From IMG/VR virus record IMGVR_UViG_3300031994_000023, positions 77,780 to 141,779 of that record: a stretch of 64,000 bases of DNA; one strand, 5' to 3'. The DNA comes from a virus (lineage: Duplodnaviria > Caudoviricetes). Made by a program: the position numbers and the translations under genes. Shown piece after piece: positions 1 through 29,027 of the stretch (position 1 is the stretch's first letter; each line of letters begins with the position of its first letter). The notes under the pieces were generated by a model. It was not told the DNA's origin. It worked only from the letters and a program-made list of their open reading frames with translations, and ran no database searches.

Positions 1-389
1 GCAACTAGAATATCTAATGTTGGATACTGCTCAAAATACTTCTTTCTCGAACCTAAAACCCAATCGTCAACTACAAAATTTTGGAAGTTTTGTTTGTCAT
101 AACTGAATGATGACATGTCTCTACGAGTGAAGGGAACTGTATCCCCTACTTGTAGCTGGGAATATTTGGTAGGTGAACGATTTCTTAATTCTTCCATGGT
201 AGGGTAAGTGAAACGGTATAATTCATCTTTAGAAGGTTCCATTAATTCTCTCATCAAAGGGATTAATTCTTTAAAGTGTTCATTAAAGTTGGTACCATAT
301 TCATACACCCATTTATCAAATTCCCAGTGTTCCTCCACAAATGCTTCACTTGCCTCCGAGTTCAGTGTAGTGTTTCCTTTACTTGCCAT
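1..389 (-). CDS. MASK-tag protein, ADP-ribosyltransferase-like (runs off the window edge; not in the ORF track)
   Basis: Manual translation from ATG at 389: MASKGNTTLNSEASEAFVEEHWEFDKWV...MEPSKDELYRFT...LQVGDTVPFT...SSFS. Clear paralog of 11470..12060 (FDKWV, MEPSEDVLYRFS, LKIGDSVFFT, KSFS). Confidence 0.75.
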   Translation of the reverse strand, partial: MASKGNTTLNSEASEAFVEEHWEFDKWVYEYGTNFNEHFKELIPLMRELMEPSKDELYRFTYPTMEELRNRSPTKYSQLQVGDTVPFTRRDMSSFSYDKQNFQNFVVDDWVLGSRKKYFEQYPTLDILV

Positions 390-470
390 ATACTTGAATT
401 TTTTTTTGATAATGAAATGAATATTTTTATATACTCTTGTTTTGTAATATATTATTAGGTGAAATAGAAT

Positions 471-770
471 TTGACAACTTTAAAATATTTTTTAGACAGA
501 TTTAAGTGTAAGAATAGATTTGCAGATAACGTGGAAGCAATTGAGTTGGGTGATGTACAATTTGATGACATGTCATATGGTGACAATGTTATATTGTTCA
601 CAAACTCTGAAAACAATGAGGTGGTTCTGAGAATTGACTTAGACCGAAGAGACATATATCTTTACACGGTTATAAACGAAAAAGAAGTGAAAGTATCTCG
701 TTGGTTAATCCATAACCAAGACACACAAAAACTCACAATAACAGTACCAAGAGAACGAGTGAACATGTAA
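471..770 (+). CDS. Small protein of the convergent partner family (putative protease inhibitor/immunity)
   Basis: 99 aa, TTG start, AGGTGA RBS, TATA-like TTTTTATATA upstream. N-terminal pattern resembles the 5599, 7079 and 9074 ORFs. Tail-to-tail with HExxH gene 831..1670. Confidence 0.65.
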   Translation: MTTLKYFLDRFKCKNRFADNVEAIELGDVQFDDMSYGDNVILFTNSENNEVVLRIDLDRRDIYLYTVINEKEVKVSRWLIHNQDTQKLTITVPRERVNM

Positions 771-830
771 AAAAAAAGACCCGACCCCACCACACACCAT
801 CCACCCCCACCCCATGATACAAAGAGGGGA

Positions 831-1670
831 TTATCCTTTTTTTCTATCGAATTCATAAAAGAAACCACGAACAACTTCAAAAACATCTTCATCTGTTTTA
901 CAATCAAGAATAGTGTTCGCAACCCTATCCAGATTCGGATTCATCCTCTTCCATTGAGCATAGGATACGGGCTCAGAATACTGATTACCATTTGGATTAG
1001 ATACTACTGCCATACTAGGATTTGTTCTATGCATCGCAACAATCTTAAAGGCATCTGCCCAATTCTCAGAATACCTATTTTCATAATTTAATTTACTATT
1101 TTTATCGAATGTGGCGTTAGCATAACCACTTGATTTCTCAGTTTCAGATAGGTTCTTAAACCAATCCATACTAGGAATGTTTCTGAGTTTAGGATGGTCT
1201 TCCATACAATGTGCCATCTCATGATATAATGTGTTTTGGGGCGAATTATAATTTTGATAAAACAATGATTTATTCCCAATGTACACATCATGAGTTCCAT
1301 AAGGAACCGACCCATACTCTGCTAGATAATTCTGAGGGTCATAATCAAAGATAATTTTATCTACATTTTTCTTCATCAAATCTGGTGCCTCATTAACATA
1401 CCGTAACAGGTCTTCCATAGTGTATGGTACCTCACCATCATTTTTTCGTTGATAGTATTCTAGATTGTCAAGGTAGTGTGTTGTGAATTCTACAGGTATG
1501 CCATCAGGTGATGTGAGGTATATTTTTTTTTCGTCATATGAATTTATTATGTAATTTTGTTGTTTACTCGCTTCGAGCAATAGTTTTGCAGAATTCTTTT
1601 TTATGTAGGGATTGTCTAAGATGTTAGTTGTAGTTATTGTGTTTAAGATGGTACTTCCTTTACTAGACAT
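831..1670 (-). CDS. MASK-tag (MSSK) zincin metallopeptidase
   Basis: HEMAH, SSGYA and ENWADAF motifs (HExxH...SxYA...ExxAE pattern). Confidence 0.75.
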   Translation of the reverse strand: MSSKGSTILNTITTTNILDNPYIKKNSAKLLLEASKQQNYIINSYDEKKIYLTSPDGIPVEFTTHYLDNLEYYQRKNDGEVPYTMEDLLRYVNEAPDLMKKNVDKIIFDYDPQNYLAEYGSVPYGTHDVYIGNKSLFYQNYNSPQNTLYHEMAHCMEDHPKLRNIPSMDWFKNLSETEKSSGYANATFDKNSKLNYENRYSENWADAFKIVAMHRTNPSMAVVSNPNGNQYSEPVSYAQWKRMNPNLDRVANTILDCKTDEDVFEVVRGFFYEFDRKKG

Positions 1671-1706
1671 ACTGTTCTTCGTGTTCTCATTTTTCTAGAG
1701 GAGTTT

Positions 1707-2099
1707 TTATAATGTGATTCCTTGTTCTTCTAATTCTTGTATTCTCTGGTTGAGTTCTCTCATTTCATCCCTCACCCTGTTATGTGCTTCCCTTGTTTCA
1801 TCATATATTCTTTGTCTTCGTCCGAGTGTTGTGAGTAGTGGTGCGGATTCTCCTCTTACCTGTATCTGTGCCTTGATTTTTTCTAGGTCTTCTCTTGCAC
1901 CCGCTAATTCGGCTCGGAGGACGTTCATTTCAACACCTAAATCCCATACTCTTGCCCATTTATCGTTTAACTCTTGATGAAGTGCTTCTGTTTCAGATGG
2001 AATTAACCCTAATTTTCTATTTAATTCAACAAAATTCAGTTCACTTTCACCAGTTGTTTCTGTTCCATTTCCAGAGTTTCCTGTTCCTTTACTTGCCAT
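1707..2099 (-). CDS. MASK-tag coiled-coil protein
   Basis: MASKGTGNSG start; heptad-like E/L/R-rich helical body. Confidence 0.7.
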   Translation of the reverse strand: MASKGTGNSGNGTETTGESELNFVELNRKLGLIPSETEALHQELNDKWARVWDLGVEMNVLRAELAGAREDLEKIKAQIQVRGESAPLLTTLGRRQRIYDETREAHNRVRDEMRELNQRIQELEEQGITL

Positions 2100-2168
2100 G
2101 ATTTTTTTTTTCCTTTATTTTCAAAAAACTAAATTTATATAAAAAATATGGGGAATATATTAAGTATT

Positions 2169-2288
2169 ATGACTATTCAAATCAAAGACATAATCAAAAA
2201 ATATCATACAAACATTGAATTAACTAAAATGACACCTGAACTTCAAAATGTGGATATATTCCAAGATAATGTTAATGTAAATAATTAA
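2169..2288 (+). pseudogene. Truncated (39-aa) member of the convergent partner family
   Basis: MTIQIKDIIKKYHTNIELTKMTPELQNVDIF aligns with the 7079 ORF (MTKLKNILQKFNLNPELTEALFELDFVDIY). TATA-like TTTATATA upstream; stops after 39 codons. Confidence 0.55.
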
Positions 2289-2298
2289 TCACTCGTGG

Positions 2299-2784: not shown

Positions 2785-2788
2785 GTTA

Positions 2789-3763: not shown

Positions 3764-3774
3764 GTTCCTTTTAT

Positions 3775-5505
3775 TTAGTCATTACTCCAGTATCCTTTGA
3801 AGTCGTTGGGATTTCTTATGTTTTTTATAACATCTGTGTTTTCACGATGGTCTTTTTCCTCTTCTATGGTTGGTACATTTGGTATCATTCCATAATTTTT
3901 GGTTTCATCAAGGTTGTTAGGGTCTACTGGACTTTCCATACTCTCAGGGTTAATGCCTAGTTGTGCCATTTGTAATTTTGTGGATATGTCATTCATCCAC
4001 ATTTGTTGCTGTTGTCTTTGTGTGTCAAGACTGTGTGATTCTTGACTCATTCCTGCATTGGCAAACATTAAACTTAATGGTGTTCCTCCGACAAAATATT
4101 CATCAAGGTATGGGTTGTCAGGGTCTGCCACTGCCCCTAATGGTTTTCCAAGGCTTTCACTTATTTGTCTTGGAGTCATCGCTCCCAAACTGAAAAGTAT
4201 GCTCGCACTTTGAAGGTCACGGGCGTAGTCTCTTTTGTCAATATCTTCTATTTTGAATAACCATGAGAGGTATTTTTCCCCGTGTAAACGATAATATTCG
4301 TCACTGAGTATTTGGTTTACTATGTCTTCATTTTTCTTTTTAATTGGTTGAATGATACTTGTGTTGTAAATGTTGGATGATTCTACACTAGTGTTTCCAC
4401 CGAGACTCCCATTTATTGCCATACCTATCCTGTATGGTGGAACTCCATGTGCACTTAGGACTTCGTCACGGTTGTCCGCTCGGTATAATCTGAAACTTGC
4501 CTCGTTACTTCCTCCTGCGTTTAGTTTTGTGAAACTTACATGCACGTTTCCTTCGGTGGATGGTACGAGCATGGCGAAGGCACTGTGAGGATTTTTAACG
4601 GCTTGTTCCATGTTTTCCTTAATTTTGTATTTAAGGGTTTTTGTTTCATCATAGTCTGGGTCTTCTTCGTCCATCCCTGGGTCGAAGTCTCCTGTGACTG
4701 TTACTGCATATGAGGGCATTCCATAATTTTGGAAGAAACTACTGTTAAATCGGCTTCTTCCAAGGTCTCCGAAGATGGCTCTTATGACTGGTACTACTTT
4801 TGCACTTCCATATACTGGTGCGTGTGGTGCATAGTTTACTCCCCATATTAATTCGTTTGCTCTTTCGCTTGGGTCTAAACTGTTGTATTCGACTTGTTCT
4901 CCAGTGTCACAGTCGACATCGAATTTGACTCCATCGGGTGTGGTGTTTTTTCCATATAATATGAACCATCTATGTTTTTTTCCAACTCTTTGTAATACTC
5001 GTACTCCGTCTCGGTGTACTTTCATGTTGAATATGGGTGTGGGGTTAAGGTCGACTATGTCGCTTTCACTTGTGTTCCTTCTGAGAATTTCCATGCATCC
5101 ACACCCGAGAGCTCTTTTATCATAACAGAATCTGTATAATGCCGTGTTTATGGGTGTGTATAATTGTAGTAGGAAATCTTCTATGAATTGTTTCTGGTTT
5201 TTTGCTTCGTTAGATTCGTCTTCCACTTGGTTTCGTGGGACTAAACTGTACCCATATCCACTGGCGTCTTCCGCTACGACTTCGCAACATCTTCTATGGT
5301 ATGTGTTGTTGTCTAATAATTCGCAGAGTCTTCTTAAATTATATTGGGGTCGTTTAAATTCGGCGTAATCGTATCCGTCATCATCGACTGCCTTCGTTCT
5401 TGCACGTGCTTCGTCCTCTTTGATAACATACCTGTCTAAGACACTTTTTTCTATTACTTCCCAGTCATTGTTTTTTTGGGTAACTACAAATTGTTCTATT
5501 GCCAT
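3775..5505 (-). CDS. Phage portal protein (PBSX/HK97-like)
   Basis: 576 aa; FFQNYGMPSYAVTV, EASFRLYR..NRDEVLSAHGVPPYRIG and IIQPI motifs typical of PBSX-family portals. Confidence 0.9.
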   Translation of the reverse strand: MAIEQFVVTQKNNDWEVIEKSVLDRYVIKEDEARARTKAVDDDGYDYAEFKRPQYNLRRLCELLDNNTYHRRCCEVVAEDASGYGYSLVPRNQVEDESNEAKNQKQFIEDFLLQLYTPINTALYRFCYDKRALGCGCMEILRRNTSESDIVDLNPTPIFNMKVHRDGVRVLQRVGKKHRWFILYGKNTTPDGVKFDVDCDTGEQVEYNSLDPSERANELIWGVNYAPHAPVYGSAKVVPVIRAIFGDLGRSRFNSSFFQNYGMPSYAVTVTGDFDPGMDEEDPDYDETKTLKYKIKENMEQAVKNPHSAFAMLVPSTEGNVHVSFTKLNAGGSNEASFRLYRADNRDEVLSAHGVPPYRIGMAINGSLGGNTSVESSNIYNTSIIQPIKKKNEDIVNQILSDEYYRLHGEKYLSWLFKIEDIDKRDYARDLQSASILFSLGAMTPRQISESLGKPLGAVADPDNPYLDEYFVGGTPLSLMFANAGMSQESHSLDTQRQQQQMWMNDISTKLQMAQLGINPESMESPVDPNNLDETKNYGMIPNVPTIEEEKDHRENTDVIKNIRNPNDFKGYWSND

Positions 5506-5598: not shown

Positions 5599-5922
5599 AT
5601 GGTTAAAATAAAAGAATTAATTAGTGAAACGGGCATTGATGTGAATGTTACAGATGCACTGTTGGAGTTGGAACCTATTAAAAAGTTCAAACTATTAAAA
5701 TATGATAAAAGTAATATACATGGACACAGATTCAAAGGAATTAGCAGTGAAGAGGGTGAAGAATACCGAGTAGTGATTGAAGTAAACGAACACTTTCAAT
5801 CAATAACCCTAATAGAATACAAAGAAAAAGTAATTAAAAACAGATGGAACAAGGATGGAATATGGGACAACCCCCAACTACATTACATGCCAACACAAAA
5901 CGAACTAAAACCTCACCCATAA
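5599..5922 (+). CDS. Small protein of the convergent partner family
   Basis: GAGGTG RBS 8 nt before ATG 5599; MVKIKELISETGIDVNVTDALLEL; 3' end overlaps the 3' end of HExxH gene 5913..6902. Confidence 0.7.
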   Translation: MVKIKELISETGIDVNVTDALLELEPIKKFKLLKYDKSNIHGHRFKGISSEEGEEYRVVIEVNEHFQSITLIEYKEKVIKNRWNKDGIWDNPQLHYMPTQNELKPHP

Positions 5923-6902
5923 CGCTCCAAGTACAAAGCGTCCATCTTATCCAACCACTCACGAGGAGTTTTAGACTCACGAAACAAACGAGCCACATGG
6001 TCTAACTCAGGCTCCAACCTAACATGCTCCTCATACGAAATATCCCCCGCAATAGTATACTGTGAACCATTAACATAACCCACCTTACCAGAACCAGGAG
6101 TAGAATCCTGAGCCTTTGCACGAGTAGGATTAGAAATAGCAGTACCCAGAGGCATAACTGAACATGCAAGATTCTCAGTATGATACATTTCCCTCATTTC
6201 TTGTTCAGGATTATTTTTAAACCCTCTTGCATACTCTGACGCACTATGCTCCTCTGACAACTTCTTAAAATAAGGATGGTCAGAAAGTGTAGTGTAAGAT
6301 TCGCCACTTAAATAATCTACTTTATGAGTTCCTTCATGTTCCATCACATTCTTATAACCACTACTAGCCCATGGGTCTTTTTTATCAAAAATACTGAAAG
6401 AATCATAAATTATGACATCATTTCCAGGGTCGTAATGTCCACTCTCTCCTTGGTCGTCACCATAAAATATCTGTGCTCCACCATAATACTTGAAAATTTC
6501 GGGGTAATCCTTGGCGTAATATTTAAAAAACTGTTCGGGTGTAACAATTAATTCTCCGTTGTGCATTGCAGAGAGTACACTTGAATCTAAGAGTAATGCT
6601 TGATTATCAAAGTATGCCACAAATTCTTCATCTTCCATATAAAATTGGTCATAACCTAATTCTTTTAGAGTTTTCAGAAGTTTTGTTGCATCTTCTTCAT
6701 TGAGGCTCGTGTTCTCAGTTAAGTATTCTATTGTTTCCGCTTCTTCTTGTTTTGTTGATTCTCTCATCATCATAACCCTTTCGTTGGGATGATGTTCACT
6801 ACTACTTATCCAGTCACCATATGAGTCTATGTATTTGTTGTAATCTTCCAACTCCTTGGTGGAACTTAAACTCATCAGTGATGTGTTTCCTTTACTTGCC
6901 AT
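5913..6902 (-). CDS. MASK-tag zincin metallopeptidase
   Basis: HEGTHKVD, SEYA and ENLA motifs. Confidence 0.75.
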   Translation of the reverse strand: MASKGNTSLMSLSSTKELEDYNKYIDSYGDWISSSEHHPNERVMMMRESTKQEEAETIEYLTENTSLNEEDATKLLKTLKELGYDQFYMEDEEFVAYFDNQALLLDSSVLSAMHNGELIVTPEQFFKYYAKDYPEIFKYYGGAQIFYGDDQGESGHYDPGNDVIIYDSFSIFDKKDPWASSGYKNVMEHEGTHKVDYLSGESYTTLSDHPYFKKLSEEHSASEYARGFKNNPEQEMREMYHTENLACSVMPLGTAISNPTRAKAQDSTPGSGKVGYVNGSQYTIAGDISYEEHVRLEPELDHVARLFRESKTPREWLDKMDALYLERYG

Positions 6903-9485: not shown

Positions 9486-10433
9486 TTATAACTTGCTATC
9501 CATGAATGCCACCACTTCATCAACAGAATTTGCATTATACACAACATCCGCCAACTCTGCCAACTCCTTATGAGACTTTCTCCAATCACCATAAGGCATG
9601 TCATTACCTGGATTAGAAGGGTCTTCAATCATTGCAAGATGTCGTGTACTCTTATCTGACCAATATCTCATAGGCATAACCGCTTCCGCCAAGTTTTCAC
9701 AATAATATTTCCTATTCTCATCAGGGTCAGATGAATTTTTATAACTTAAACTATACCCCGAAGCTGCACTTTTATCCGAAATTTTCATGAAATAAGGATG
9801 ATTTGAGATTATTCCACCACCATTAAGTGCACCTTTTCCTCCGAAATCCAATCTATGCACATGCTCATGTAACATTGTATGTCCTAAATCATAACTAGTA
9901 CCTTGACCTATTTGGAACAATGGTGTAACACTTATATAAATCTCATTGTCTTCTGTGTAATAGTTTTGGTCAGAATATGCGAATATTACTTTTCCACCAT
10001 TTGCATGGAATAAATCTGGTTGATTATTTATTTCATCTAAGATTGATGAAAAACGGTATGCTGAATCGAATGGGTTGATTGGTATTTCATCTTCCACAAA
10101 TTCTAGGTATCTGTCAGATATGAAATATATTTGATTGTCTTGTCGTAATGTTATTCCATTTATTCCTTCATGTTCGTATTCTGGTAATATTTCGAATCCT
10201 GCATTTTGTATGTCATAGTATAAGTCGTAGTATGCGTCAATGTCAAGTGTTTCTTCGTCAACCGTTTTGCTTTTTTCTGCCAGAAAATCTTCGACATCAT
10301 CTACTGATTCCATATTATAGTATTCATCTAATGAAGGGTCGTATGTTTTTTCTTGTTCGTCGAATGTTTCTTCGTATTCTTCCTCTGTCTCAGAAACGGT
10401 TGTTGTGGAACCACCACCATATTTACTTGCCAT
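9486..10433 (-). CDS. MASK-tag zincin metallopeptidase
   Basis: HEHVHRLD, SGYS and ENLAE motifs; close paralog of 10477..11433. Confidence 0.75.
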   Translation of the reverse strand: MASKYGGGSTTTVSETEEEYEETFDEQEKTYDPSLDEYYNMESVDDVEDFLAEKSKTVDEETLDIDAYYDLYYDIQNAGFEILPEYEHEGINGITLRQDNQIYFISDRYLEFVEDEIPINPFDSAYRFSSILDEINNQPDLFHANGGKVIFAYSDQNYYTEDNEIYISVTPLFQIGQGTSYDLGHTMLHEHVHRLDFGGKGALNGGGIISNHPYFMKISDKSAASGYSLSYKNSSDPDENRKYYCENLAEAVMPMRYWSDKSTRHLAMIEDPSNPGNDMPYGDWRKSHKELAELADVVYNANSVDEVVAFMDSKL

Positions 10434-11469: not shown

Positions 11470-12060
11470 TTATGCCTCTTCAATATAAATTAAGCGTACT
11501 TTTTCGTTTTCCCTCAGTTCTTCATGAGTAGTATTTTTCCTGTCAAAGAAATCATAATAATTAACTGTTTTAATATCCTTAACAAGCCACCCCTCACCTT
11601 TACCGTCACCCCTCACTAAACGTTCTGCCTGACCATATTCTTCTTGATAATAGTCAAGAGAAAACATGGGAGTACCTTTCGGTGCGATGAATATATTGTA
11701 GGGAGCATTGTTTAATTGTCTGTATCGGGGGTTTCTGAATATTTCAACAACACCCTCTTGAAACGAAGAGAAATCTTCACTAAACGATTTAAGTGTTCCT
11801 GTGAAGAATACGGAATCTCCAATTTTCAAGTTATCATGTTCATTTTCATACGCTTCATCTCCATAGTTTGTATTGGATGGAGTGCTAAATCTATACAATA
11901 CATCTTCTGATGGTTCCATATGGTCAAGTATATACTGTTCTTGTTCGGGGCTAAAAAGATTGCCATCACCCGAAACCCATTTATCGAATGTTTCCAGATT
12001 ATCTTGGATATATTGGTCAGATAATTGTGATTGTAGTGTCACATTGCCCTTGCTCGTCAT
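11470..12060 (-). CDS. MASK-tag (MTSK) ADP-ribosyltransferase-like protein
   Basis: R-S-E type motifs in the expected order: VLYR, SFS, QAE. Confidence 0.55.
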   Translation of the reverse strand: MTSKGNVTLQSQLSDQYIQDNLETFDKWVSGDGNLFSPEQEQYILDHMEPSEDVLYRFSTPSNTNYGDEAYENEHDNLKIGDSVFFTGTLKSFSEDFSSFQEGVVEIFRNPRYRQLNNAPYNIFIAPKGTPMFSLDYYQEEYGQAERLVRGDGKGEGWLVKDIKTVNYYDFFDRKNTTHEELRENEKVRLIYIEEA

Positions 12061-12151: not shown

Positions 12152-13672
12152 TTACATTATAATTTTTGTTCGTTTATGAGTCCATTGTCGAGCACTGCCG
12201 GTGAGACTATCCACAATGTCATCACGTTCACCTTCCACACCCGTGAAACTAATTAATTGTTCAATCATCTTATTATTCCATGGGGCACGAACGAATTTAA
12301 CACAACGACTTTCTGCCAAATTTTCCAAAGCGAAACTACGAATATTCTTTGCACCACGCACTTTATCACCACGAATATTCCATAACTTAAGACGAGGATG
12401 ATTTGCAAAACTGTTAATAAGAATTCGACTACCACTACCAGGCTCTTCCTCAATCCTTATTCTCACATGTCTACCATCCTTCAATGCAATTCTCATAAAT
12501 GTTTCATTAACCATTTTCGGAGTGAAATTCCCATTTACAAGGTCGAGAACATAGAGTGTTTCGCCATCATACGCAGTTAACACACCACTAGTTTCATCAC
12601 CTTCAGGTTTATAGTTTGCCTTGGTTTTCTTGTTAGCTGCGAAATCCCAGTATCTCATCCGAGGTATTCCTTCGGGTACTTCATCTTTTTCTATTATGCA
12701 TGTAGGCACCACTCCATCTTCATCGTAGAACCATTCTCTTCGGAACACATATCCTTGTCTTACGGTAGGGTTGCCTTGATATACTGCGTTGAAGAGGTAA
12801 GAACCCATACTTCTCTTGGCTTCCATTAACACATTAATATCCCTTTGTTCTTCCCACAAGACTTCTCCTTCTTTTCTTCCTAGAAGGTCACGAGAAGGGT
12901 CTTCACATATTGCGGGGAAGTTAACATCAACCCATACTTCTTGAGGTATTGCCCCACCTTTCCTTAAAATCTCTAATGCCTCTTTAGCATCAATTGTTGG
13001 CTCATTTCGTTGAATGATTCCCTGCAAATCATTGATATGTAAACGTTGTGCGATTATGAGCATTATGGGTGGTAGTCCATTACTACGTTTTTGTAAACGA
13101 GTTTTTGCAGTTGCCTCAAACCATGACCTTAATTTATCTTGCAATACAGGACTTTCCGCTTCGGCAATGTTTTTAATAGGGTCGTCAATTATGAAGAGCC
13201 CCGCACCGAAACCGAGGATAGAACCGGCAGCACCTACACTTAACATTTGTCCTTCAAATGGTTTTTGCATGTGAAACTTGTTTTTTGCCTTACTATCTGT
13301 TGCAAGTCCCGCTTTAAGAAGTGTTTGGTCACTATAATAGTTAAGAATGTCTTTTACTTCTCCTCCGAATTCACTGGCTAAACCCTGTGAATAAGAGGAT
13401 AAAATCACCTGCTCATTTGGGAAGTTTGCAAGGAAATATGAACAAAATATTTTACTTATGAGTGTGGATTTTCCGTGTCGTGGTGGTACGGAGAGCATGA
13501 GTTTGGAGACTTTACCTTGGATGGCATAATAAAGAAATTCTATGATTATTTTGTCAAAGTCTCTTGGTTTCCATGTTCCATTGGTTATTAATTTACCCCA
13601 CATTGCAATATTTATGGAGGCAGGGTTGTACAAATCGTTAGGTAATTTTTTATCTATTTCTGTTTCGGTCAT
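12152..13672 (-). CDS. terL: Terminase large subunit
   Basis: Walker A PPRHGKS, Walker B IIDDP, YQGNP, nuclease motifs RYWDFA and DDIVDS. Confidence 0.95.
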   Translation of the reverse strand: MTETEIDKKLPNDLYNPASINIAMWGKLITNGTWKPRDFDKIIIEFLYYAIQGKVSKLMLSVPPRHGKSTLISKIFCSYFLANFPNEQVILSSYSQGLASEFGGEVKDILNYYSDQTLLKAGLATDSKAKNKFHMQKPFEGQMLSVGAAGSILGFGAGLFIIDDPIKNIAEAESPVLQDKLRSWFEATAKTRLQKRSNGLPPIMLIIAQRLHINDLQGIIQRNEPTIDAKEALEILRKGGAIPQEVWVDVNFPAICEDPSRDLLGRKEGEVLWEEQRDINVLMEAKRSMGSYLFNAVYQGNPTVRQGYVFRREWFYDEDGVVPTCIIEKDEVPEGIPRMRYWDFAANKKTKANYKPEGDETSGVLTAYDGETLYVLDLVNGNFTPKMVNETFMRIALKDGRHVRIRIEEEPGSGSRILINSFANHPRLKLWNIRGDKVRGAKNIRSFALENLAESRCVKFVRAPWNNKMIEQLISFTGVEGERDDIVDSLTGSARQWTHKRTKIIM

Positions 13673-14292: not shown

Positions 14293-14761
14293 TTAATTTC
14301 TCCTGTATCATATTGTTAAGGTCTTCTTTGAATTCGCCTCGTAAAAACTTATTCGTATCTCTTTGATTACGATATTCCTTGTTATACTGATAAATATAAG
14401 ATTCAACCATGTGGTCAACAACTTCCTCTGGTGTTATATCACCATTTTTTTGTATAGTACGGTTAACTCTATTTACAACTTGATTTTCATAAGGAATTTG
14501 ATATACTTCTAAACCGAAAGCTTGGTCAAAAGAGAACATTTCATCAAAACCAGTAGATTCTCTTCGGGTAACAATACTAATAACCCTATCCGCTAAGCCC
14601 TCTATATCAATATCAGATTCACCATAGTTACTATGAAAATTATGATACTTCTCTTTTAACCCATTAGTGTTCACTGTTTCAGAGTTAAGATAAATAGGAT
14701 AATCGTCTAGTCCTGTGTCTGTGTAGGAAGCACCACCACCACTACCATTTTTACTTGCCAT
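14285..14761 (-). CDS. MASK-tag protein, long-leader subfamily (start reassigned to 14761)
   Basis: Internal Met gives MASKNGSGGGASYTDTGLDDYPIYLNSE; overlaps the stop of the upstream terminase small subunit. Confidence 0.75.
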   Translation of the reverse strand: MASKNGSGGGASYTDTGLDDYPIYLNSETVNTNGLKEKYHNFHSNYGESDIDIEGLADRVISIVTRRESTGFDEMFSFDQAFGLEVYQIPYENQVVNRVNRTIQKNGDITPEEVVDHMVESYIYQYNKEYRNQRDTNKFLRGEFKEDLNNMIQEKLNG

Positions 14762-15431
14762 CTTTTCTACTATTACCCTCTTGTTTAACCATTTCATTGA
14801 TAATATCTAACTGTTTATCAATAAATCTCTTATCCATTATTGCCTCAGTGAATTCAGCATACCTTTTACTGGTATCTTCGTCACGTGTCGTGTTAACATC
14901 TGCATCAACAATAACCTCTTGTGTGTCCTGAATCATTTCAGGTAATCCAAGGAATCTTAAGGCAAGTTTACTTGTCACAGCATTGGCGTTGGAAAGATTC
15001 TGAATACTATTAGCGACGGTTGTACTGTTAACACGATTGTTCGGTTCAAATTCACCTGTTTTAGGATTAGGTATGAGTCCGAGGTCTATCATTAATTGTC
15101 CTAGTACTGCATCCGTTGCTTGATGGTATTGGTCAAGTTGTTCTAATCGTTTATCAAAATAAGCGTCTTGTTCTTGTTTTAGTCTTTCATTTCTTAGGTA
15201 GACGTCGTATTCGTCTTTTTGGTTGGCTCTGTCCACCCAGTGATATTTACTACTGTACACTTTTAGTTGTTGTAGGCTTATGTCATTGTTGTGTTTGGCT
15301 CTTGTTTTGTTTAGTGTACGGTTTGGTCCAAGGTTAAGGTAGGTGTTGAAGTAGGTGAACGCTTTTTGCGTTTCATTCTTCATCCTTTCTGACCATGAAT
15401 AATTTTCGTCTTTATTGTCTTTTTTTGACAT
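14751..15431 (-). CDS. Probable terminase small subunit
   Basis: ETQKAFTYFNTYLNLGPNRTL...SSKYHWVDRA HTH-like pattern seen in small terminases; lies upstream of terL. Confidence 0.6.
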   Translation of the reverse strand: MSKKDNKDENYSWSERMKNETQKAFTYFNTYLNLGPNRTLNKTRAKHNNDISLQQLKVYSSKYHWVDRANQKDEYDVYLRNERLKQEQDAYFDKRLEQLDQYHQATDAVLGQLMIDLGLIPNPKTGEFEPNNRVNSTTVANSIQNLSNANAVTSKLALRFLGLPEMIQDTQEVIVDADVNTTRDEDTSKRYAEFTEAIMDKRFIDKQLDIINEMVKQEGNSRKDGK

Positions 15432-15673: not shown

Positions 15674-16081
15674 CTAAAGGTAAATCTGGAAATCTTCTTG
15701 TCGTGCAGGTTGAGGAATAACTACTCTTCCCCCACTTCGTGGACGGAATATTCTATTAAATAAGTTTTGATAATTTCCTGTTTCATAGGCTTCTCGAAGG
15801 TCTTCTACGGGGATTTCTCCACCGATTATTACATTTCCTGCATGGTCATATGCTGCCTCATCCATTTCCCCTAAATTATCCCTTATTGCCCTTCTTAAAC
15901 CTATGTCAAATGTATGGGTTTCATCATCATCTATTTCTTCCAAGAAGTTATCTAGTTCTTCTTGTGTGTCTCCTGCGGGTGTTGTTCCTGCTTCTGTGTT
16001 AAGGTATGTTGGATAATCGTCTATTCCGGTGTCTTCGTAGGAGGCTCCTCCACCTCCACCACCTTCTCCTTTACTAGCCAT
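15674..16081 (-). CDS. MASK-tag protein, long-leader subfamily
   Basis: Leader MASKGEGGGGGGASYEDTGIDDYPTYLNTE. Confidence 0.75.
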   Translation of the reverse strand: MASKGEGGGGGGASYEDTGIDDYPTYLNTEAGTTPAGDTQEELDNFLEEIDDDETHTFDIGLRRAIRDNLGEMDEAAYDHAGNVIIGGEIPVEDLREAYETGNYQNLFNRIFRPRSGGRVVIPQPARQEDFQIYL

Positions 16082-17172: not shown

Positions 17173-17931
17173 TCAATCCTCATAAAACCGCAGAGACATA
17201 TCCAACATCCGAACCTTCCGTTGCAACCTATCCCTCACCTCACGCTCAAACCTTTTCCTATCCTTACAACTCGAACAAACACCACACGGACGCTCACCAT
17301 TATAATAACAACTCCACGTATCACGAAGGTCAATACCAAAATCCATAGCCATCTCCAAAATCTCATGTTTATTCTTCTTCAACAACGGAGCCCTAATCTG
17401 AACAACCTTCAAATCACTCATCATATTCAACAAATTAAACTGATGAACATACTCCGCACGACAATCCAAATAAACAGGATTCACATCACCAGTAGCACCA
17501 TAATACACCCTCTCATAACCATGTTGCAAAGCGTAACTAGTACCAATACTCAAAAAAGTCGAATTACGGGCAGGAACCAAAGTCTCATCATCCAAAACAT
17601 GATTATTATTAGGAGCGAGATTACCATCAATGGCATAAGAACTAATCTTAACAACTTCATGACTAACATTCAAACGTTCACAATGCCGTTTAGCCATCTG
17701 AATCTCCTTAATTGCCTCCTGCCCATAATCAAAACTAATCACATGCAAAGGCACCTTCTCATTCCATAACCAATAAAGCAGAGTTGTTGTGTCAAGACCA
17801 CCACTCATTAAAAGAATAGAAGGTTTAAGTTCAATTTGACTAACTTCATTCAACATTGTTTCATAAGAAACATTCTGCTTATCCAACACCTTACCCAACC
17901 GTTGACTATGAAATTTATCCGCTACACTCAA
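17173..17931 (-). CDS. queC: 7-cyano-7-deazaguanine synthase QueC-like
   Basis: SGGLD PP-loop, SFDYGQ, VPARN, YLDCR, TWSCY...PCGVCSSC zinc site. Confidence 0.85.
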   Translation of the reverse strand: MSVADKFHSQRLGKVLDKQNVSYETMLNEVSQIELKPSILLMSGGLDTTTLLYWLWNEKVPLHVISFDYGQEAIKEIQMAKRHCERLNVSHEVVKISSYAIDGNLAPNNNHVLDDETLVPARNSTFLSIGTSYALQHGYERVYYGATGDVNPVYLDCRAEYVHQFNLLNMMSDLKVVQIRAPLLKKNKHEILEMAMDFGIDLRDTWSCYYNGERPCGVCSSCKDRKRFEREVRDRLQRKVRMLDMSLRFYED

Positions 17932-17969
17932 AATTATCCATTCCCTCTGTTTATCTCTCTTCTTTTTGT

Positions 17970-18809
17970 TTAATTCACTCTTCTTCTCTTATTCCTTAAT
18001 AAAGTAAAATAAGTTTTCCAATAATTCTTGTAAAACTCTTGCCTCTGCAATTGCTTCAAAAAATATTTTCGCTCATACAAAGGACGATACTTCCTATTCG
18101 TTTCAGGAGTCTTAGGTATACCTGAATGAAAATAATAATCTCTGATGGCACTCATATTCCAACCCGCACTATCAACACTATTAAAGGGTGTTTTCTTTAA
18201 CTGCCTATCGTCATTGATTCCTAAGCCATGAACGTAGCAACCGTGTTTATGAGCGTACTTAACTAACTGAGTATATCCATTAGACGTAATCCCATCATTC
18301 CCACATATACTAATATTATCATACTGACGACACATATGTTTGAATTCATTTATGCCCCATATTGGATGATACACTGCAATAATATTGGGAGTGATGGAAA
18401 GAAGTGCATCTCGTAGATGACGAATAGAAGGCAAACCTAGATAAAGTAAATCCATATCAAAGTAACCTTGTATCCTTTTATCGTTTTTTGTTTCTTTAAC
18501 AAAAGACAAATATTTTTCTATGAATTTCCTTGTTTTTTCTTCTGACTGGGATTTAGCCGAAAAGTTGTAAATATAGGCACCACTATCAATCAGTAACTTC
18601 ACATTAGGGAATTGTTTTAACTTTTCATACTCCCCCCTATGTGCTTGAACCAAGAGATTCATTTTTTTGTTTTGAAAATCATCTACACCCACATAATCAT
18701 GTGCCCTTTTGTCAATTACAGTGTATACATCCATTCCACAATCTTGCTGAATCATAATAATTCTACCATTCATACCCACATTTAGGGCAACGATAATGAT
18801 TGGTTTCAT
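17970..18809 (-). CDS. TGT-fold/DpdA-like transglycosylase (true start probably downstream of 18809)
   Basis: LIDSGAY, FDMD, AVYH, VHGLG and SVDSAGW motifs; lies between queC and a ParB-N gene. Confidence 0.65.
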   Translation of the reverse strand: MKPIIIVALNVGMNGRIIMIQQDCGMDVYTVIDKRAHDYVGVDDFQNKKMNLLVQAHRGEYEKLKQFPNVKLLIDSGAYIYNFSAKSQSEEKTRKFIEKYLSFVKETKNDKRIQGYFDMDLLYLGLPSIRHLRDALLSITPNIIAVYHPIWGINEFKHMCRQYDNISICGNDGITSNGYTQLVKYAHKHGCYVHGLGINDDRQLKKTPFNSVDSAGWNMSAIRDYYFHSGIPKTPETNRKYRPLYERKYFLKQLQRQEFYKNYWKTYFTLLRNKRRRVN

Positions 18810-19401
18810 CCGAACTAACCATTACTTCGTCTAGTACCTCACTCCCACTCTCCAAATGCTCCTTCGTCCGTTCTTCTCTTATTTCACGCCTACCATTACT
18901 TGGGTCTATATCATGACGCAGTTGTGGGGACTCTTCATCAAACAATGTATTGTCAATTTGTATTAACTCATCAATATTGAATGTGGAAAGTTCTACATCA
19001 TCAAAGCCTGTTAAATCCATGTTGAAATTTGAAACTTGTAACTCATTCAATATGTTAGTTAATTTCCCATAATCCCAGTCACCACTAATCTTGTTTAACG
19101 CCAAATTCAAAGCTTTCTCATGTTCATCATCTTTAATAGAGAGTTTATCATCTTCGAACACCCATCCTATGTCCCCAAGTCGTATCATAGAGAAATCTTT
19201 ATCTGCACTTGTCTTGGAGAGTACGTTGTATCGTTGGTGTCCCCCAATAATATGATTATTTTTTAAGTTAACAATTATTGGGTCAACAAGTCCAAATTCT
19301 TTCAAGTTCTCTGCTAATCTTTTTTGTTCGTCGGGTGTGATTATTCTTGGATTATATTCTGCGGGTTGTAATTGATTAAGTTTTATGGTTTCAAATTTCA
19401 T
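18763..19401 (-). CDS. ParB/Srx N-terminal domain protein with C-terminal CxxC
   Basis: AEYNPR, FGLVDPIIVN, IIGGHQR, ALNKISGDWD, CPKCGYEW. Confidence 0.85.
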   Translation of the reverse strand: MKFETIKLNQLQPAEYNPRIITPDEQKRLAENLKEFGLVDPIIVNLKNNHIIGGHQRYNVLSKTSADKDFSMIRLGDIGWVFEDDKLSIKDDEHEKALNLALNKISGDWDYGKLTNILNELQVSNFNMDLTGFDDVELSTFNIDELIQIDNTLFDEESPQLRHDIDPSNGRREIREERTKEHLESGSEVLDEVMVSSDETNHYRCPKCGYEW

Positions 19402-21089: not shown

Positions 21090-21095
21090 GATTTT

Positions 21096-21479: not shown

Positions 21480-21628
21480 GGTGCTCATCGATAGGTTTAT
21501 AAAAAAAATTGTTTTCCATGTTTCTTTTTTTATGGGAAAGGTGGTGTGTTAAAAAAGAAAAAGTGTGGATTTACAAAAAAAATTAATGGTGGATTATTAA
21601 GAAAAAATATGATAATGGGGGTGGGGGG

Positions 21629-22207
21629 TTATTGTTTATGTACTAATAGGTATGAATATGCGTTTGCGAGTTCATCATATTCTTTGTAGTTTGGGTATAC
21701 TTCAGATATTAATTCATAGAATCGTGGGGTGTGTTCCCATTCTTCATAGTGGCATAATTCATGATATACATTGTATTCCACTAATTCTTTAGGAACATAT
21801 TGTAATTTTGTACTAAATGATAAATTGTGATTTTGTGAATGTGATGCCCAACTTCTATTCATGTCTGATTTGATGAATATTCGGTTGGGTGTTCCTTTGT
21901 AGGAGTATTTTTTTAAGTATTGGTTTATAAGATGTTGTAATTCTTCTTTTGTTCTGTATTCGAGGGTTAGGTTTTCGTTTTTAATCTTGTGTTGGAGGTG
22001 AGTTACTTGTTTTTCGTATTTTTTTAAGATGTTTTTCATCCAGTCTATGTGACTGTGTAGTATGTGTTCTATTTCGGTTATTGTGTGTTTTGGGTTGACT
22101 TTGATATAGAATTCGTCCCAGTGTATGAATAGTTTGTAGTTTTTTACTTGTTTGGTGTACCTTATTTGTACATTTTTGTGTATTTCGTTTATAAATATAT
22201 TTGTCAA
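21629..22207 (-). CDS. Second YgjP/DUF45-like metallopeptidase-domain protein
   Basis: RSWASHS...LSFS..L...P...VYHELCH...HTPRFY. Confidence 0.75.
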   Translation of the reverse strand: MTNIFINEIHKNVQIRYTKQVKNYKLFIHWDEFYIKVNPKHTITEIEHILHSHIDWMKNILKKYEKQVTHLQHKIKNENLTLEYRTKEELQHLINQYLKKYSYKGTPNRIFIKSDMNRSWASHSQNHNLSFSTKLQYVPKELVEYNVYHELCHYEEWEHTPRFYELISEVYPNYKEYDELANAYSYLLVHKQ

Positions 22208-23546: not shown

Positions 23547-23828
23547 TCAGTCCAATTCCAATATTAACCGGAGATTGCGTATAGGATAAGCCATGAACCT
23601 TTCAATTATTTGTTCTTCGGTCATGCCTATTTCGTTCCACATGTTTATGTTTTGAGTATATAATGCACCACTCGCACTATATGCTCTTTCCATGAAACCT
23701 GTATCTTCTTTTAGGAAGTTTTCGAGTAATTCTGTTTTTTGTTGTTTAGTTAGTCCTCTGGCAGGTGTTTCGGAGAACATTGTTTTAACTTTTTTTTCAA
23801 ATTCTTGGAATGATATGGGATATTTCAT
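23547..23828 (-). CDS. Hypothetical protein (no MASK tag)
   Basis: 93 aa, GAGGT RBS; directly downstream of the GNAT-like MASK gene. Confidence 0.6.
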   Translation of the reverse strand: MKYPISFQEFEKKVKTMFSETPARGLTKQQKTELLENFLKEDTGFMERAYSASGALYTQNINMWNEIGMTEEQIIERFMAYPIRNLRLILELD

Positions 23829-25071: not shown

Positions 25072-25689
25072 TCATAATTCTTTAGGATAAGGTTTCCGTC
25101 TACATTCTAAGATTTTGCGTTGTTTCTTAGTGAGAGGATAACAATATTTATGTCTTCCTTTATCGGGAATATAATATGCGTTTTTATCAATATGTTGTTG
25201 AATCCACTTAAGACTAGATGTTCCATACCTAGAACTAGCACTCCTTGCATGTACTTTTTCACCATTAATCATCATCCATGATTTTCGTGAGATTGTACCT
25301 AAATATATCCAATTACCCGCTTGATAAATAACACCCAAATGATTCTGGTTTCTATCTGCATAACTCACTATTACTTCAATTTGTGGTTGTGTTTTTTTTA
25401 TTAGTTTAATTGTTTCACTGATTATTTTAGTAACAGGAGTTTTATGTTCCTTCAAAGCAACTCGTGCCAACTCACAAACACCACCCCTATTTTGAGGAGT
25501 GAATTCTGCGTATAACATCCGAGAACCTCTATTATAAATTACTGAACCAATAAATTTTCCATCTTCCCATGCCCCAAACAGTAACTTTTTATCAGATGGC
25601 ATTTGTTTACTGTAATGATAATGTTCCACTGCAAACTTAGACGCTTGGTAAGTACAAGGTGCTACGTGGATGGAGGGTTTATTTTTCAT
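25072..25689 (-). CDS. Mom-like GNAT DNA adenine modification protein
   Basis: HYHYS, ELARVAL, VSYAD..Q.H.GVIYQAGNWIYLG, K.RHKY.YPL motifs. Confidence 0.75.
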   Translation of the reverse strand: MKNKPSIHVAPCTYQASKFAVEHYHYSKQMPSDKKLLFGAWEDGKFIGSVIYNRGSRMLYAEFTPQNRGGVCELARVALKEHKTPVTKIISETIKLIKKTQPQIEVIVSYADRNQNHLGVIYQAGNWIYLGTISRKSWMMINGEKVHARSASSRYGTSSLKWIQQHIDKNAYYIPDKGRHKYCYPLTKKQRKILECRRKPYPKEL

Positions 25690-26401
25690 TAATTATTTCT
25701 ATTCCATATTTTTTTTCAGATAATAATGTGTCAACTGTTTCTTCGGATAATAATTTTTTTATCTCCGATAATCCGTTTTGAGTTATTTTTATCATATAAT
25801 ACTCTTCTTCGGAGTCGTTTGTTTCTTCGGGTTCTTCATTTTGTAATTCTTGTCTATCCGTTGCTTCGTTTTGTGATGTTTGTTCAGTGATTGTTTCATC
25901 TGTGTTTTCAAATTGACTCAATTGAGGTAAGGTATCTAGTGGTTGTTCACTGAAATCAATGTCAAAACCAAAGTAATCTTTGTCAAATCCTGTTAACTCT
26001 AGGTTGAAATTGTTCACATTTAGTTCATCAAAGAGTTCGTCAAGTTTTCCAAAGTCCCATTCACCACTTATCTTGTTTAGTGCAATATTTAATGCTTTTT
26101 CATGGTTTTCGTCTTTGATTGTGAGTTTATCATCTTCAAATACCCAACCTATGTCTCCTAATCGGATTAGTTTTAACTCCCCATCTTCATAGTCGACATC
26201 TGTCCCCATTTTTTCTCGAAGTACATTGTATCGTTGGTGTCCTCCGATGATGTGGTTGTTTTTTAGGTTGATAATTATGGGGTCAACGAGTCCGAATTCT
26301 TCAAGGTTTTGTGTTAACTTTTTTTGTTCGGATGGACTCATTACCCTTGGGTTGTATTCACTTGGGATTATTTCATCTAGTTTTATTTTATCAATTTTCA
26401 T
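25679..26401 (-). CDS. Second ParB/Srx N-terminal domain protein
   Basis: Close paralog of 18763..19401 over the N-terminal ~140 aa; different acidic C-terminus. Confidence 0.85.
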   Translation of the reverse strand: MKIDKIKLDEIIPSEYNPRVMSPSEQKKLTQNLEEFGLVDPIIINLKNNHIIGGHQRYNVLREKMGTDVDYEDGELKLIRLGDIGWVFEDDKLTIKDENHEKALNIALNKISGEWDFGKLDELFDELNVNNFNLELTGFDKDYFGFDIDFSEQPLDTLPQLSQFENTDETITEQTSQNEATDRQELQNEEPEETNDSEEEYYMIKITQNGLSEIKKLLSEETVDTLLSEKKYGIEIINEK

Positions 26402-26476
26402 AAACGAACTCTTTAATTTTTTTTGGGTTATATTTCTCTAAAAAAAAATTGTTTAAACAGGTTATAAGAGTTTATG

Positions 26477-27415
26477 TTAAGATAGGTTCATATTCCATGC
26501 ATTTAATATATCTCTTACGACGGTGGTGGTTACTGCGTTACCGCAACATTTGTATCGTTGGGTGTCACTTATTAGTTCACCGTTTACTCCTAATTGTGTG
26601 TAATTATCTGGAAATCCTTGTAATCGTTCACATTCTATGGGTGTTAACTTTCTGATTTGATAATTTTCCATTAACACCCCTACTCCACATTCTGTGTGTA
26701 TTGTAGGACTTAGTTGTGTTTGCACTCTTCCTCGACAGTTTGTTTGTCCGAGTACTATTCCGTCTCCAACACTTGCCTCAACATAACCTTTTTTAGTATT
26801 GTTTCTTAGTTTTATTCTTTTTATGTGCTCTGTTTTATTTTTTTTTGAGGTATTTTTTGGAGGGTGTTCATTTGTTGTTTTGATAGATAGTATTTCTTGT
26901 CCACATCTTGTTCTAAGAAATCCTTTAAGGAATATTCTTTCCCTATTCTGTGGTACTCCATGGTTTTTGCTATTATATATCGACCATTGCACATTATACC
27001 CCAGTTCGGTGAGTGTCCTAAGGATTGTCTTGAAAGTTCTTCCCTTGTCGTGAGATAATAAACCTTTAACATTTTCGAGTAAAAAATATTTGGGTTTTTT
27101 GTCTTTGAGAATCCTTGCGATTTCAAAAAAGAGCGTTCCTCTGGTGTCGTTGAACCCTCTTCTTTTTCCTGCATGAGAAAATGCTTGACACGGGAATCCT
27201 CCAACCATGAAATCAAAGTGGGATATGTTTTCTGTTCTGATTTTGGTGACGTCTCCGAGGTCAGTGTGGTTTGGATAGTGTTTTTTGTAGATGTTTTTTG
27301 CATATTTGTCTATTTCACTGAATCCTATACATTTTAATTGGTTAGCGTACTTGCTTTGTATGATTCCATATTCAAATCCTCCGATACCACTGAATAAGGA
27401 CAAGTAATTCATCAT
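26477..27415 (-). CDS. dcm: DNA (cytosine-5)-methyltransferase
   Basis: LFSGIGG, GGFPCQ, ENVKG, QNRER, RLQGFPD and GNAVT motifs. Confidence 0.95.
   Translation of the reverse strand: MMNYLSLFSGIGGFEYGIIQSKYANQLKCIGFSEIDKYAKNIYKKHYPNHTDLGDVTKIRTENISHFDFMVGGFPCQAFSHAGKRRGFNDTRGTLFFEIARILKDKKPKYFLLENVKGLLSHDKGRTFKTILRTLTELGYNVQWSIYNSKNHGVPQNRERIFLKGFLRTRCGQEILSIKTTNEHPPKNTSKKNKTEHIKRIKLRNNTKKGYVEASVGDGIVLGQTNCRGRVQTQLSPTIHTECGVGVLMENYQIRKLTPIECERLQGFPDNYTQLGVNGELISDTQRYKCCGNAVTTTVVRDILNAWNMNLS
26821..27303 (-). CDS. Overprinted ORF within dcm; putative beta polypeptide (M.EcoHK31I-like)
   Basis: Alternative frame open for 160 codons; contains NWGIMCNGRY...EY....EYSLKDFLEQDVDKKYYLS. Confidence 0.5.
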   Translation of the reverse strand: MQKTSTKNTIQTTLTSETSPKSEQKTYPTLISWLEDSRVKHFLMQEKEEGSTTPEERSFLKSQGFSKTKNPNIFYSKMLKVYYLTTREELSRQSLGHSPNWGIMCNGRYIIAKTMEYHRIGKEYSLKDFLEQDVDKKYYLSKQQMNTLQKIPQKKIKQST

Positions 27416-27430
27416 ATTTTTATTTGAGTA

Positions 27431-27964
27431 TTAGTTATTCTTTTTTTTTGTTTCTACGGTTATTATTGTATCATTATGTTGAGCCCCGTGTGGAACGAGA
27501 AGTATTTCTTGCATTTCAAAATTGTTAGTTTTGCCTATGCCACCACTATTCCATCCACAACAAATAGCAACACCACCTTGTTTAGTTATTCGTGCAATTT
27601 CCTTTTTCTGTTTTGTCCAGTAACTTGCCTGTGTGGTAGTCATGTTTACTGAGTGGTTTAGTTTTTTATATGATTCACTTACTTGTCTTGGACTATAAGG
27701 TGGGTCATATAATACAATATCTACACTGTTTTCTTCGAATAGTTTCAGAAAATCAAGAGCGTCCATATGATAATTTGTATTGTATTGTGGGTCTAGGTCG
27801 TTAGTAACTGTGGCTATGGTATTGTTGTTAGCGAAAGGGTCTATGATTATCGGGTTGTTGTTGGTTGAAGAGTAATCTTGGATTGTTTTGTGAATTAATT
27901 CTTTGATAGGTTTGATGGTAAATGTGTTTTTAGAGGGCATTGCCCATTTTCGATTTATTTTCAT
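27431..27964 (-). CDS. Phage-type N6-adenine (amino) DNA methyltransferase
   Basis: IDPFA SAM-binding motif, DALDFL, catalytic DPPYS, VPHGAQHNDTI. Confidence 0.8.
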   Translation of the reverse strand: MKINRKWAMPSKNTFTIKPIKELIHKTIQDYSSTNNNPIIIDPFANNNTIATVTNDLDPQYNTNYHMDALDFLKLFEENSVDIVLYDPPYSPRQVSESYKKLNHSVNMTTTQASYWTKQKKEIARITKQGGVAICCGWNSGGIGKTNNFEMQEILLVPHGAQHNDTIITVETKKKNN

Positions 27965-28277
27965 GAGGAAATTTTTTTTATAGGAGAGCAGTTGGATTTG
28001 ATAAAATTGATTTTTAAGAGTTAGTAATACTTCTTTTTCAACTATGCTCTAAAAGAACGGGCGTTGGGATAAAAGAGAAAATAAGAAACATTTAAATACT
28101 ATGAAAACATATATAATAGTGTAGAAAAAAGAATATAAACCTTTTTTTTACCATAAACAATAATTCGTACAAAAAAAAGGCGAGATTACACTCACATAGT
28201 TTAACTTTTAAAAATAGTTTAGATTATAAACAATTATATTCTATACAAGGAAAAGTTAAAGAAGGGAGGTGATACCT

Positions 28278-28346
28278 ATGCCAAAATGGGATATGTATTA
28301 TTACATAAACCATATTTTGACATTGTTGAACCACCTATTTAATTAA
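28278..28346 (+). CDS. 22-aa hydrophobic peptide in a structured intergenic locus
   Basis: GGAGGTGA RBS before ATG; MPKWDMYYYINHILTLLNHLFN; TATA-like TTTAAATA near 28091. Confidence 0.45.
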   Translation: MPKWDMYYYINHILTLLNHLFN

Positions 28347-28481
28347 GAAGAAGTAATCCCGTTTAACTTTTGTATAATTATTGTTTTGTATCTCCACCTA
28401 TATATACATTATTATTCTACAAACCTCTTTTTTTATCCAAACCTCGCCCCTTCGCTTTGAAAAAATTAATGAAAGATTGTC

Positions 28482-28518
28482 TTTTACCTTAATGTATGAG
28501 TTTTACCTTAATGTATGA
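28482..28518. repeat. 18-bp tandem direct repeat TTTTACCTTAATGTATGA
   Basis: Two copies 1 nt apart, duplicating the 3' end of gene 28503..29027. Confidence 0.8.
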
Positions 28519-29027
28519 TTTATTAAATTAGGGGAAGTTATTCTTGTTCTGCGTTCTGGTGCTTTAAGTTGTCTTCTTCCTCTTGCAGATTCTGTTGCCA
28601 TAACTCCTTGAACATATGATTCGTATTGAGGAGCATTTTCGTAACGGAATGTTTCATATTCATAGATTTTGTCTAATAACTCTTCTTCCATCTCTGCTAA
28701 TCTTCGATTATCCTCTACTCTTACTCTTTCACCATTTTCATATCTTCTGGTGAACCTATCATGGAGGATATTATCCCTTTCTATGAGTTGTTCATATATT
28801 TCTTTAGCCATATTTTGAAGAGTTTTTATCTCTTCTTTTTGTTTTACTCTGTCAAGGAAGTATGTTTCATTTAATGCATCTTTCCAGTCTCTTGTAACAA
28901 CACTCTCCCTTGCTCCAGTATCGTTATTATTTCTTGTTTCGGTGTTGAGGTAGGTTGGGTAGTCATCTATCCCTTCATCTATGAATGGTGCTCCACCACC
29001 TCCACCACCTCCTCCTTTACTTGCCAT
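28503..29027 (-). CDS. MASK-tag protein, long-leader subfamily
   Basis: Leader MASKGGGGGGGGAPFIDEGIDDYPTYLNTE. Confidence 0.75.
   Translation of the reverse strand: MASKGGGGGGGGAPFIDEGIDDYPTYLNTETRNNNDTGARESVVTRDWKDALNETYFLDRVKQKEEIKTLQNMAKEIYEQLIERDNILHDRFTRRYENGERVRVEDNRRLAEMEEELLDKIYEYETFRYENAPQYESYVQGVMATESARGRRQLKAPERRTRITSPNLINHTLR

Follow-up and report, generated by a model that had tools for sequence, protein, structure and literature searches.

A short, virus-specific N-terminal tag on cargo-like proteins in the head-gene block of a methanogen virus: a probable head-loading address

Why should two dozen proteins of one virus, with bodies of different folds and sizes, begin with the same four residues? 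This question is raised by a 64,000-nucleotide stretch of tailed-virus DNA (hereafter the window), which covers positions 77,780 to 141,779, the second half, of the 141,779-bp IMG/VR record IMGVR_UViG_3300031994_000023 (G000; rated 92% complete). A preliminary description of the window had reported minus-strand open reading frames (ORFs) starting with M[AST]SK among the packaging genes and had proposed that this tag directs effectors into the virion. In our analysis, the favoured and rather likely explanation is that the tag is a head-loading address, resembling the capsid-targeting sequence (CTS) of phage T4, for stand-alone cargo of the MuF type; binding to a head component, packaging and ejection are the steps that we infer. 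This explanation is supported by the tag itself, its confinement to the head and packaging block, the folds of the cargo, the existence of MuF-fused counterparts and the presence of lineage-specific tags on common protein families.

Six-frame translation recovered every one of the 22 minus-strand M[AST]SK starts previously listed in the window, each heading an open frame of 89 to 376 residues (Table 1), while one further match headed a 27-residue chance frame. The DNA pattern of the tag gave exactly 22 matches in the window, compared with a mean of 0.41 and a maximum of 3 in 100 shuffles, and, as had been stated, no such start was present beyond 29.1 kb. Two more tagged genes lie directly before the window (genome positions 76293-76892 and 76919-77554), bringing the total to 24, a figure that leaves out one internal pattern match within the integrase. 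Tagged genes account for 24 of the 38 non-nested minus-strand ORFs within this block (genome 76.3-106.8 kb, approximately 31 kb) and for none of the 117 elsewhere (Fisher p ~1e-18, a value that is only descriptive because the block boundaries were drawn around the tags). In two Methanobrevibacter metagenome-assembled genomes (MAGs) of 2.6 and 3.2 Mb, used as a host control, 11 and 16 matches were found, close to the 11 and 7 obtained with the reversed pattern. The starts at 14761 and 21479 are provisional because in-frame ATG codons are located 12 and 3 codons upstream, respectively. The block starts directly next to the prohead protease/scaffold and major capsid protein (MCP) genes and takes in the portal and both terminase genes, in agreement with the reported interleaving with packaging genes, and untagged DNA-modification genes (QueC, Mom) are interspersed among the tagged ones.

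The proposed conservation of the peptide, and not of the underlying DNA, also held. Codons 2-4 of the 24 tags differ from the consensus by 10 synonymous and only 2 amino-acid differences, and the gene that begins with MTSK (11470..12060) has a 98% identical strain copy that begins with MASK. The upstream DNA is merely A-rich, with conservation stopping at the ATG, and neither the upstream nor the flanking DNA of the tagged genes in G000 yielded a conserved site; an integron-like cassette site was rejected on this ground. In seven tagged genes the tag is extended by a Gly-rich linker and a GIDDYPTYLN motif into a 30-residue leader (the GIDDY leader), and pairwise comparison of 18 codons of these leaders yielded 143 synonymous versus 83 non-synonymous codon differences.

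The tagged proteins comprise seven zincin peptidases, four proteins with an ADP-ribosyltransferase (ART) fold, one GNAT-fold protein and 12 small proteins; the seven HExxH zincins, two ART-like proteins and one GNAT-like protein first counted in the window were all found. Their description as diverse is to be tempered by the paralogy of the zincins and ARTs and by the leader common to seven proteins. The zincins share the invariant residues H189, E190 and H193 (HExxH) and a downstream glutamate (E243/246), and a profile search matched them to neprilysin/ECE-1 (E 7e-6), and Foldseek searches with a zincin model returned only weak matches (E > 0.01), chiefly metallopeptidases and minor capsid proteins of the MuF type. 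The ART family, with invariant R57, S94 and E146, had no match in Pfam or PDB sequence searches; its assignment rests on these motifs and on predicted structure, which matches PF03496 clusters with template-modelling (TM) scores of 0.63-0.67, the best being a MuF-ART fusion cluster (TM 0.63). The GNAT-fold protein likewise matches a MuF-fused cluster (TM 0.71). The 12 small proteins, seven of which carry the GIDDY leader, are mostly acidic or coiled-coil and have no assigned family.

The cargo families are those found fused to MuF in other viruses, as had been suggested. Among 314 Methanobacteriaceae genomes, most matches to the zincins were located in proteins of 500-1040 residues with the MuF CRC motif, and eight of ten long homologues tested matched the MuF family, six of them above the Pfam cut-off; that is, the zincin family of the tagged proteins is MuF-fused in methanogen proviruses. 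In G000 itself, within a record rated 92% complete, no MuF was detected with PF04233 or by tblastn, and profile searches found no MuF domain in the tagged proteins.

A feature missed in the preliminary description is that the tag sequence is specific to each virus and switches on related bodies. Close relatives, with portals 74-84% identical to that of G000, carry MGKNR (L011), MGKSR (L023), MGNN (L008), MATNSE (L010, a contig in a Methanosphaera MAG) or SLI[ST][RK] (L021, L027 and L030), and MA[SG]KY was found in L009. In G001 (137 kb, portal 76% identical), which has the same layout as G000, a stretch of 32 kb contains 21 MGKNR matches (20 full genes), and MASK genes are absent from the 81 kb examined. 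The third codon positions of the G001 tags are free to vary, with Arg encoded by AGR or CGN. In L021, L027 and L030, the SLI[ST][RK] motif is retained behind variable extensions of 0-14 residues and therefore represents a conserved peptide and not a start-codon context. Pattern scans of IMG/VR for the GIDDY leader and for the MGKSR-type start yielded no matches. A second-level leader with a PTM-x-ED motif follows the tag in MGKNR and MGNN viruses (L005 18139, L008 1685 and 4697, L011 7847) and is the counterpart of the GIDDY leader of G000.

The protein bodies group independently of these tags: 15 zincins, 11 ARTs and five coiled-coil proteins clustered by body irrespective of tag. When 81 zincin bodies were placed in a tree without their first 30 residues (a quick IQ-TREE run with long branches, of which only starred pairs were used), starred sister zincins carried unlike tags with SH-aLRT support of 98-100; for example, the zincin starting at 1670 (MSSK) pairs with a protein tagged MGNN, a MASK zincin with one tagged MGKSR, and MGKNR with SLI-type proteins. 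Judged from these comparisons, the tag tracks the virus lineage and not the gene; the portal tree was too poorly resolved for ordering the tag changes. More distant viruses (portal 56-57% identical) have a compact head module, and the 21 kb examined contain no tagged gene. In a separate lineage, an 18-residue helical leader ending in K-C/H/T is found on about 10 genes adjoining the terminase, including zincins and ARTs; this lineage is represented by L028 and L031 (contigs of 65 and 180 kb), where the leader genes are often trailed by same-strand genes of 54-130 residues.

Under the head-loading explanation, the tag would serve as a short address at the N terminus of cargo proteins that stand alone and are expressed late, and would be bound during prohead assembly by a head-assembly component such as the scaffold/protease, the portal or an adaptor. 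The tagged proteins would enter the head along with the DNA and be set free in the next cell infected, with host proteins or host defences as possible targets of the peptidases, the ADP-ribosyltransferases and the acetyltransferase. In this role the tag would stand in for the MuF domain of the smaller methanogen proviruses, and therefore any new gene gaining the tag would join the payload. Its uniformity within a genome would reflect selection for a single binding partner, probably together with recombination between similar gene starts, while tags would drift from lineage to lineage. More tentatively, the tag might serve as a private postcode, with a tag of 4-6 residues and its reader co-evolving and about two dozen cargo genes switching together, such that each lineage loads only its own stand-alone enzymes and excludes those of co-infecting relatives; if true, an archaeal virus would carry an open-ended payload of effectors addressed by a peptide.

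Several observations weigh against head loading. No enzyme domain can be recognised in half of the tagged proteins, and at 4-5 residues the tag does not reach the length of the T4 CTS (10) or the P1 signal (>9). No binding partner was identified, and neither the portal nor the MCP nor the protease contains the tag sequence; copying of the tag from any of these three proteins is ruled out by the latter result. Since tags are unlike at 74-84% portal identity, the binding partner would have to change fast. G001 carries a stand-alone MuF without cargo alongside its tags, so that the earlier proposal that the tag replaces a MuF fusion is too simple, its agreement with the lack of a detectable MuF in G000 notwithstanding. 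Finally, the Ser3 codon is AGY in 24 of 24 tags, versus a genome share of 42%, and the tags therefore have a common DNA descent, via copying or via single-step change from Gly/Asn codons, a pattern that allows a copying process without any address function.

Three other explanations were considered. The one that survives best, though we regard it as unlikely, is that the tag addresses another destination, serving in tail or baseplate loading, in the manner of the signal peptides of contractile injection systems, in recognition by a viral chaperone, or as a modification or stability signal in the infected cell. A gene of contractile tails (the sheath initiator) is present, the residue next to Met is small in every tag and a flexible linker rich in Gly, Ser and Asn comes after the tag, and QueC and Mom, whose genes share the block, act within the cell; however, no tagged gene is located among the tail genes, all being among the head genes in each relative examined, and the cargo domains are MuF-fused elsewhere.

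Somewhat less likely again is that the tag is a by-product of recombination, which would copy a working gene start as block genes arise or are swapped, the peptide itself having no address role. The uniform Ser3 codon would be expected from such copying, as would the ACG codon for Thr3 in five of five MATNS starts of L010, the 63-79% DNA similarity of the 30-residue leaders on unrelated bodies, the deletion of one tagged gene in two other strains, and tags that track genomes and not genes. Copying of gene starts does not readily account for the lack of conservation upstream of the ATG, for third codon positions that vary freely up to the AGR/CGN arginines of G001, or for an SLI[ST][RK] motif retained internally behind variable extensions, and the untagged genes of the block (portal, terminase, ParB-like, QueC) never gain the tag. 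The least probable explanation, that the tag is a minimal propeptide cut after Lys by the prohead protease, with head entry by other means, draws on the K|S cleavage of HK97, on nine E-S-x-K motifs in the protease/scaffold and one in the MCP leader, and on the K or R present in MASK, MGKNR, MGKSR, SLI[ST][RK] and the K-C/H/T end of the distant leader, but it is improbable as a general explanation because the conserved parts of two tag types, MGNN and MATNSE, have no basic residue (first K/R at residues 4-58) and because the scaffolds of G000, G001 and L011 keep their E-S-x-K repeats even though the tags differ and do not match them.

Compared with known systems, the head-loading tag would be closest to that of T4, in which a 10-residue CTS loads the divergent internal proteins IPI-III and the ART Alt is also packed (PMC9026906, PMC3012670). 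A short common N-terminal peptide, divergent bodies, an ART among the cargo and cargo that varies between related viruses are shared features. In contrast, the T4 CTS is cut by gp21 after Glu, is conserved across T-even phages and serves about three genes, whereas the present tag has 4-5 residues of unrelated sequence on 24 genes of an archaeal virus, lies among portal and terminase genes, differs between close relatives and is a packaging signal by prediction only. No consensus is shared with the CTS or with the gp21-type site (L/I-x-E), and the protease is of the XkdF type (PF14550 in the G001 orthologue), with E-S-x-K repeats in the scaffold. Domains of the zincin, ART and GNAT families are regular head cargo (PMC5512222, PMC9503650), and these domains, the packaging-module site and small adjacent ORFs as candidate immunity genes are reminiscent of MuF polymorphic toxins (PMC5576092) and phage polyvalent proteins, in which archaea are reported to be poor (PMC5512222). 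Unlike MuF toxins, the cargo here is stand-alone and peptide-tagged, lacks a MuF domain and is present in many copies per genome, with partners mostly on the opposite strand. In phage P1, an N-terminal peptide of DarB is sufficient for loading a protein into the capsid (PMC9024508); that signal spans 10-30 residues and has no consensus among the Dar proteins, in contrast to the exact motif found here. Compared at the sequence level, the tag system would work like the T4 CTS and MuF cargo and yet is a member of neither, because both the CTS sequence and the MuF fusion are lacking. The principle is known from T4 and P1; what sets this system apart is how short the tag is, its presence on 24 genes, its switching from lineage to lineage and the archaeal host. 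No description of such a tag in methanogen viruses was found in the literature searched.

If head loading is correct, a peptide of 4-5 residues suffices for protein loading into the head of an archaeal virus, and this would be, to our knowledge, the shortest such signal. Each virus would then offer some two dozen candidates for proteins that counter defences or take over the host, and the tag would provide a means of delivering proteins into the Methanobacteriales, producers of livestock methane that are difficult to manipulate. How phage heads select their cargo can be tested directly with the tag swaps that have arisen naturally between close relatives.

A gene of approximately 100 codons adjoins four of the seven zincins in G000 and all seven in G001, mostly in convergent orientation. 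These genes form one divergent family with an N-terminal helix resembling MTTLKELL, present in most close relatives examined. A fold search with the partner protein gave no clear match (best Z 6.7), and the predicted complex of the zincin at 5913-6902 with its partner at 5599-5922 (score 0.02, mark 0.32) was counted neither way. Their position, by analogy with MuF toxins (PMC5576092), suggests that they encode inhibitors or immunity proteins. The payload varies within the population, as contigs of two other strains are without most of the tagged gene at 15674-16081. Apparent long-range joints at 19882 and 19902 in strain contigs proved to be mis-mapping of the paralogous leader at 29027 and not recombination.

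Table 1. Genes of the tagged block, in window coordinates
Feature	Position	Strand	Remarks
MASK ART-fold, 200 aa	1..389 (past window edge; genome 77566-78168)	-	clusters with ART family
Small convergent partner, 99 aa, TTG start	471..770	+	partner-family alignment
MSSK zincin (HExxH), 279 aa	831..1670	-	
MASK coiled-coil, 130 aa	1707..2099	-	homologues tagged MGKNR, MGNN, MATNS
MASK + 30-aa Gly-rich/GIDDY leader, helical body, 161 aa	2299..2784	-	
MASK zincin, 324 aa	2789..3763	-	weakly matches C-terminal part of PHROG 4728 (head morphogenesis)
Portal, untagged	3775..5505	-	PF04860 E 1e-12; 43% identity to Drs3 portal
Small convergent partner, 107 aa, helix + beta-meander	5599..5922	+	
MASK zincin, 329 aa	5913..6902	-	model pLDDT 93; low confidence only in first ~11 residues
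Small convergent partner, 102 aa	7079..7387	+	
MASK zincin, 291 aa	7429..8304	-	
MASK helical protein, 188 aa	8352..8918	-	
Small convergent partner, 110 aa	9074..9406	+	
MASK zincin, 315 aa	9486..10433	-	
MASK zincin, 318 aa	10477..11433	-	45% identity to zincin 9486..10433
MTSK ART-fold with R, S, E motifs	11470..12060	-	motifs + predicted structure
Terminase large subunit (TerL), untagged	12152..13672	-	
MASK + GIDDY leader, 171 aa	13777..14292	-	body 39% identical to MGKNR protein of G001
MASK + GIDDY leader, 158 aa	14285..14761	-	alternative ATG at 14797
Terminase small subunit (TerS), untagged	14751..15431	-	PHROG 6299 E 8e-17
MASK + GIDDY leader, 135 aa	15674..16081	-	mostly deleted in two other strains' contigs
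MASK Gly-rich protein, 89 aa	16096..16365	-	L009 homologue begins MAGKY
MASK + GIDDY leader, acidic body, 165 aa	19433..19930	-	
MASK zincin, 376 aa	19959..21089	-	
MASK coiled-coil, 127 aa	21096..21479	-	alternative ATG at 21488
YgjP-like metallopeptidase, untagged, within block	21629-22207	-	
MASK helical protein, 207 aa	22309..22932	-	
MASK + GIDDY leader, coiled-coil body, 170 aa	22994..23506	-	
Untagged 93-aa gene directly after GNAT-fold gene	23547..23828	-	candidate immunity or partner gene; homologue after tagged gene in L030 (E 8e-6)
MASK GNAT-fold, 202 aa	23859..24467	-	structural neighbours include MuF-fused cluster
MASK + GIDDY leader, 174 aa; last tagged gene	28503..29027	-	

By gene content, G000 is a virus of Methanobacteriales, consistent with the archaeal host first proposed: the portal has its nearest counterparts in methanogen viruses (43% identity to that of Methanobacterium virus Drs3), the endolysin has a pseudomurein-binding repeat, and an archaeal Hjc resolvase is also encoded. 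The tail is probably contractile, since a sheath-initiator gene is present. Two proteins of the tail region (genome 51495-52577 and 54814-55317, L002, minus strand) have in common a leader of about 25 residues with an MNSQADR motif, followed by a Gly/Ser-rich linker, and one of them begins with MATNN, near the MATNS tag of L010. A tyrosine recombinase is encoded at genome 26329-27462 (L003 8330-9463, minus strand; PF00589 E 7e-11), and the virus may be temperate.

The modification genes lying between the tagged genes occupy 17173-19401 and 25072-27964 and include QueC, ParB-like pairs, Mom and a cytosine-methylase-like gene; genes for PTPS, a radical SAM protein and GTP cyclohydrolase I are likewise found among tagged genes in L009 (1-8200), and the cluster suggests 7-deazaguanine modification. 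In G001 (L016 292-3306 and 4224-14493) a 1004-residue restriction-modification-like protein and several DNA methylase-like genes are located among the MGKNR genes. A sigma-70 promoter scan gave 60 matches against a chance mean of 50 and was set aside, this consensus being unsuited to archaea. Several tagged genes are covered by short contigs of one metatranscriptome, which may stem from DNA carry-over and were not taken as expression. DNA nearly identical to G000 was found in sheep and goat gut runs. Outside the block, an anaerobic ribonucleotide reductase gene, NrdD, is located at 52614-54671 on the plus strand, opposite to its neighbours.

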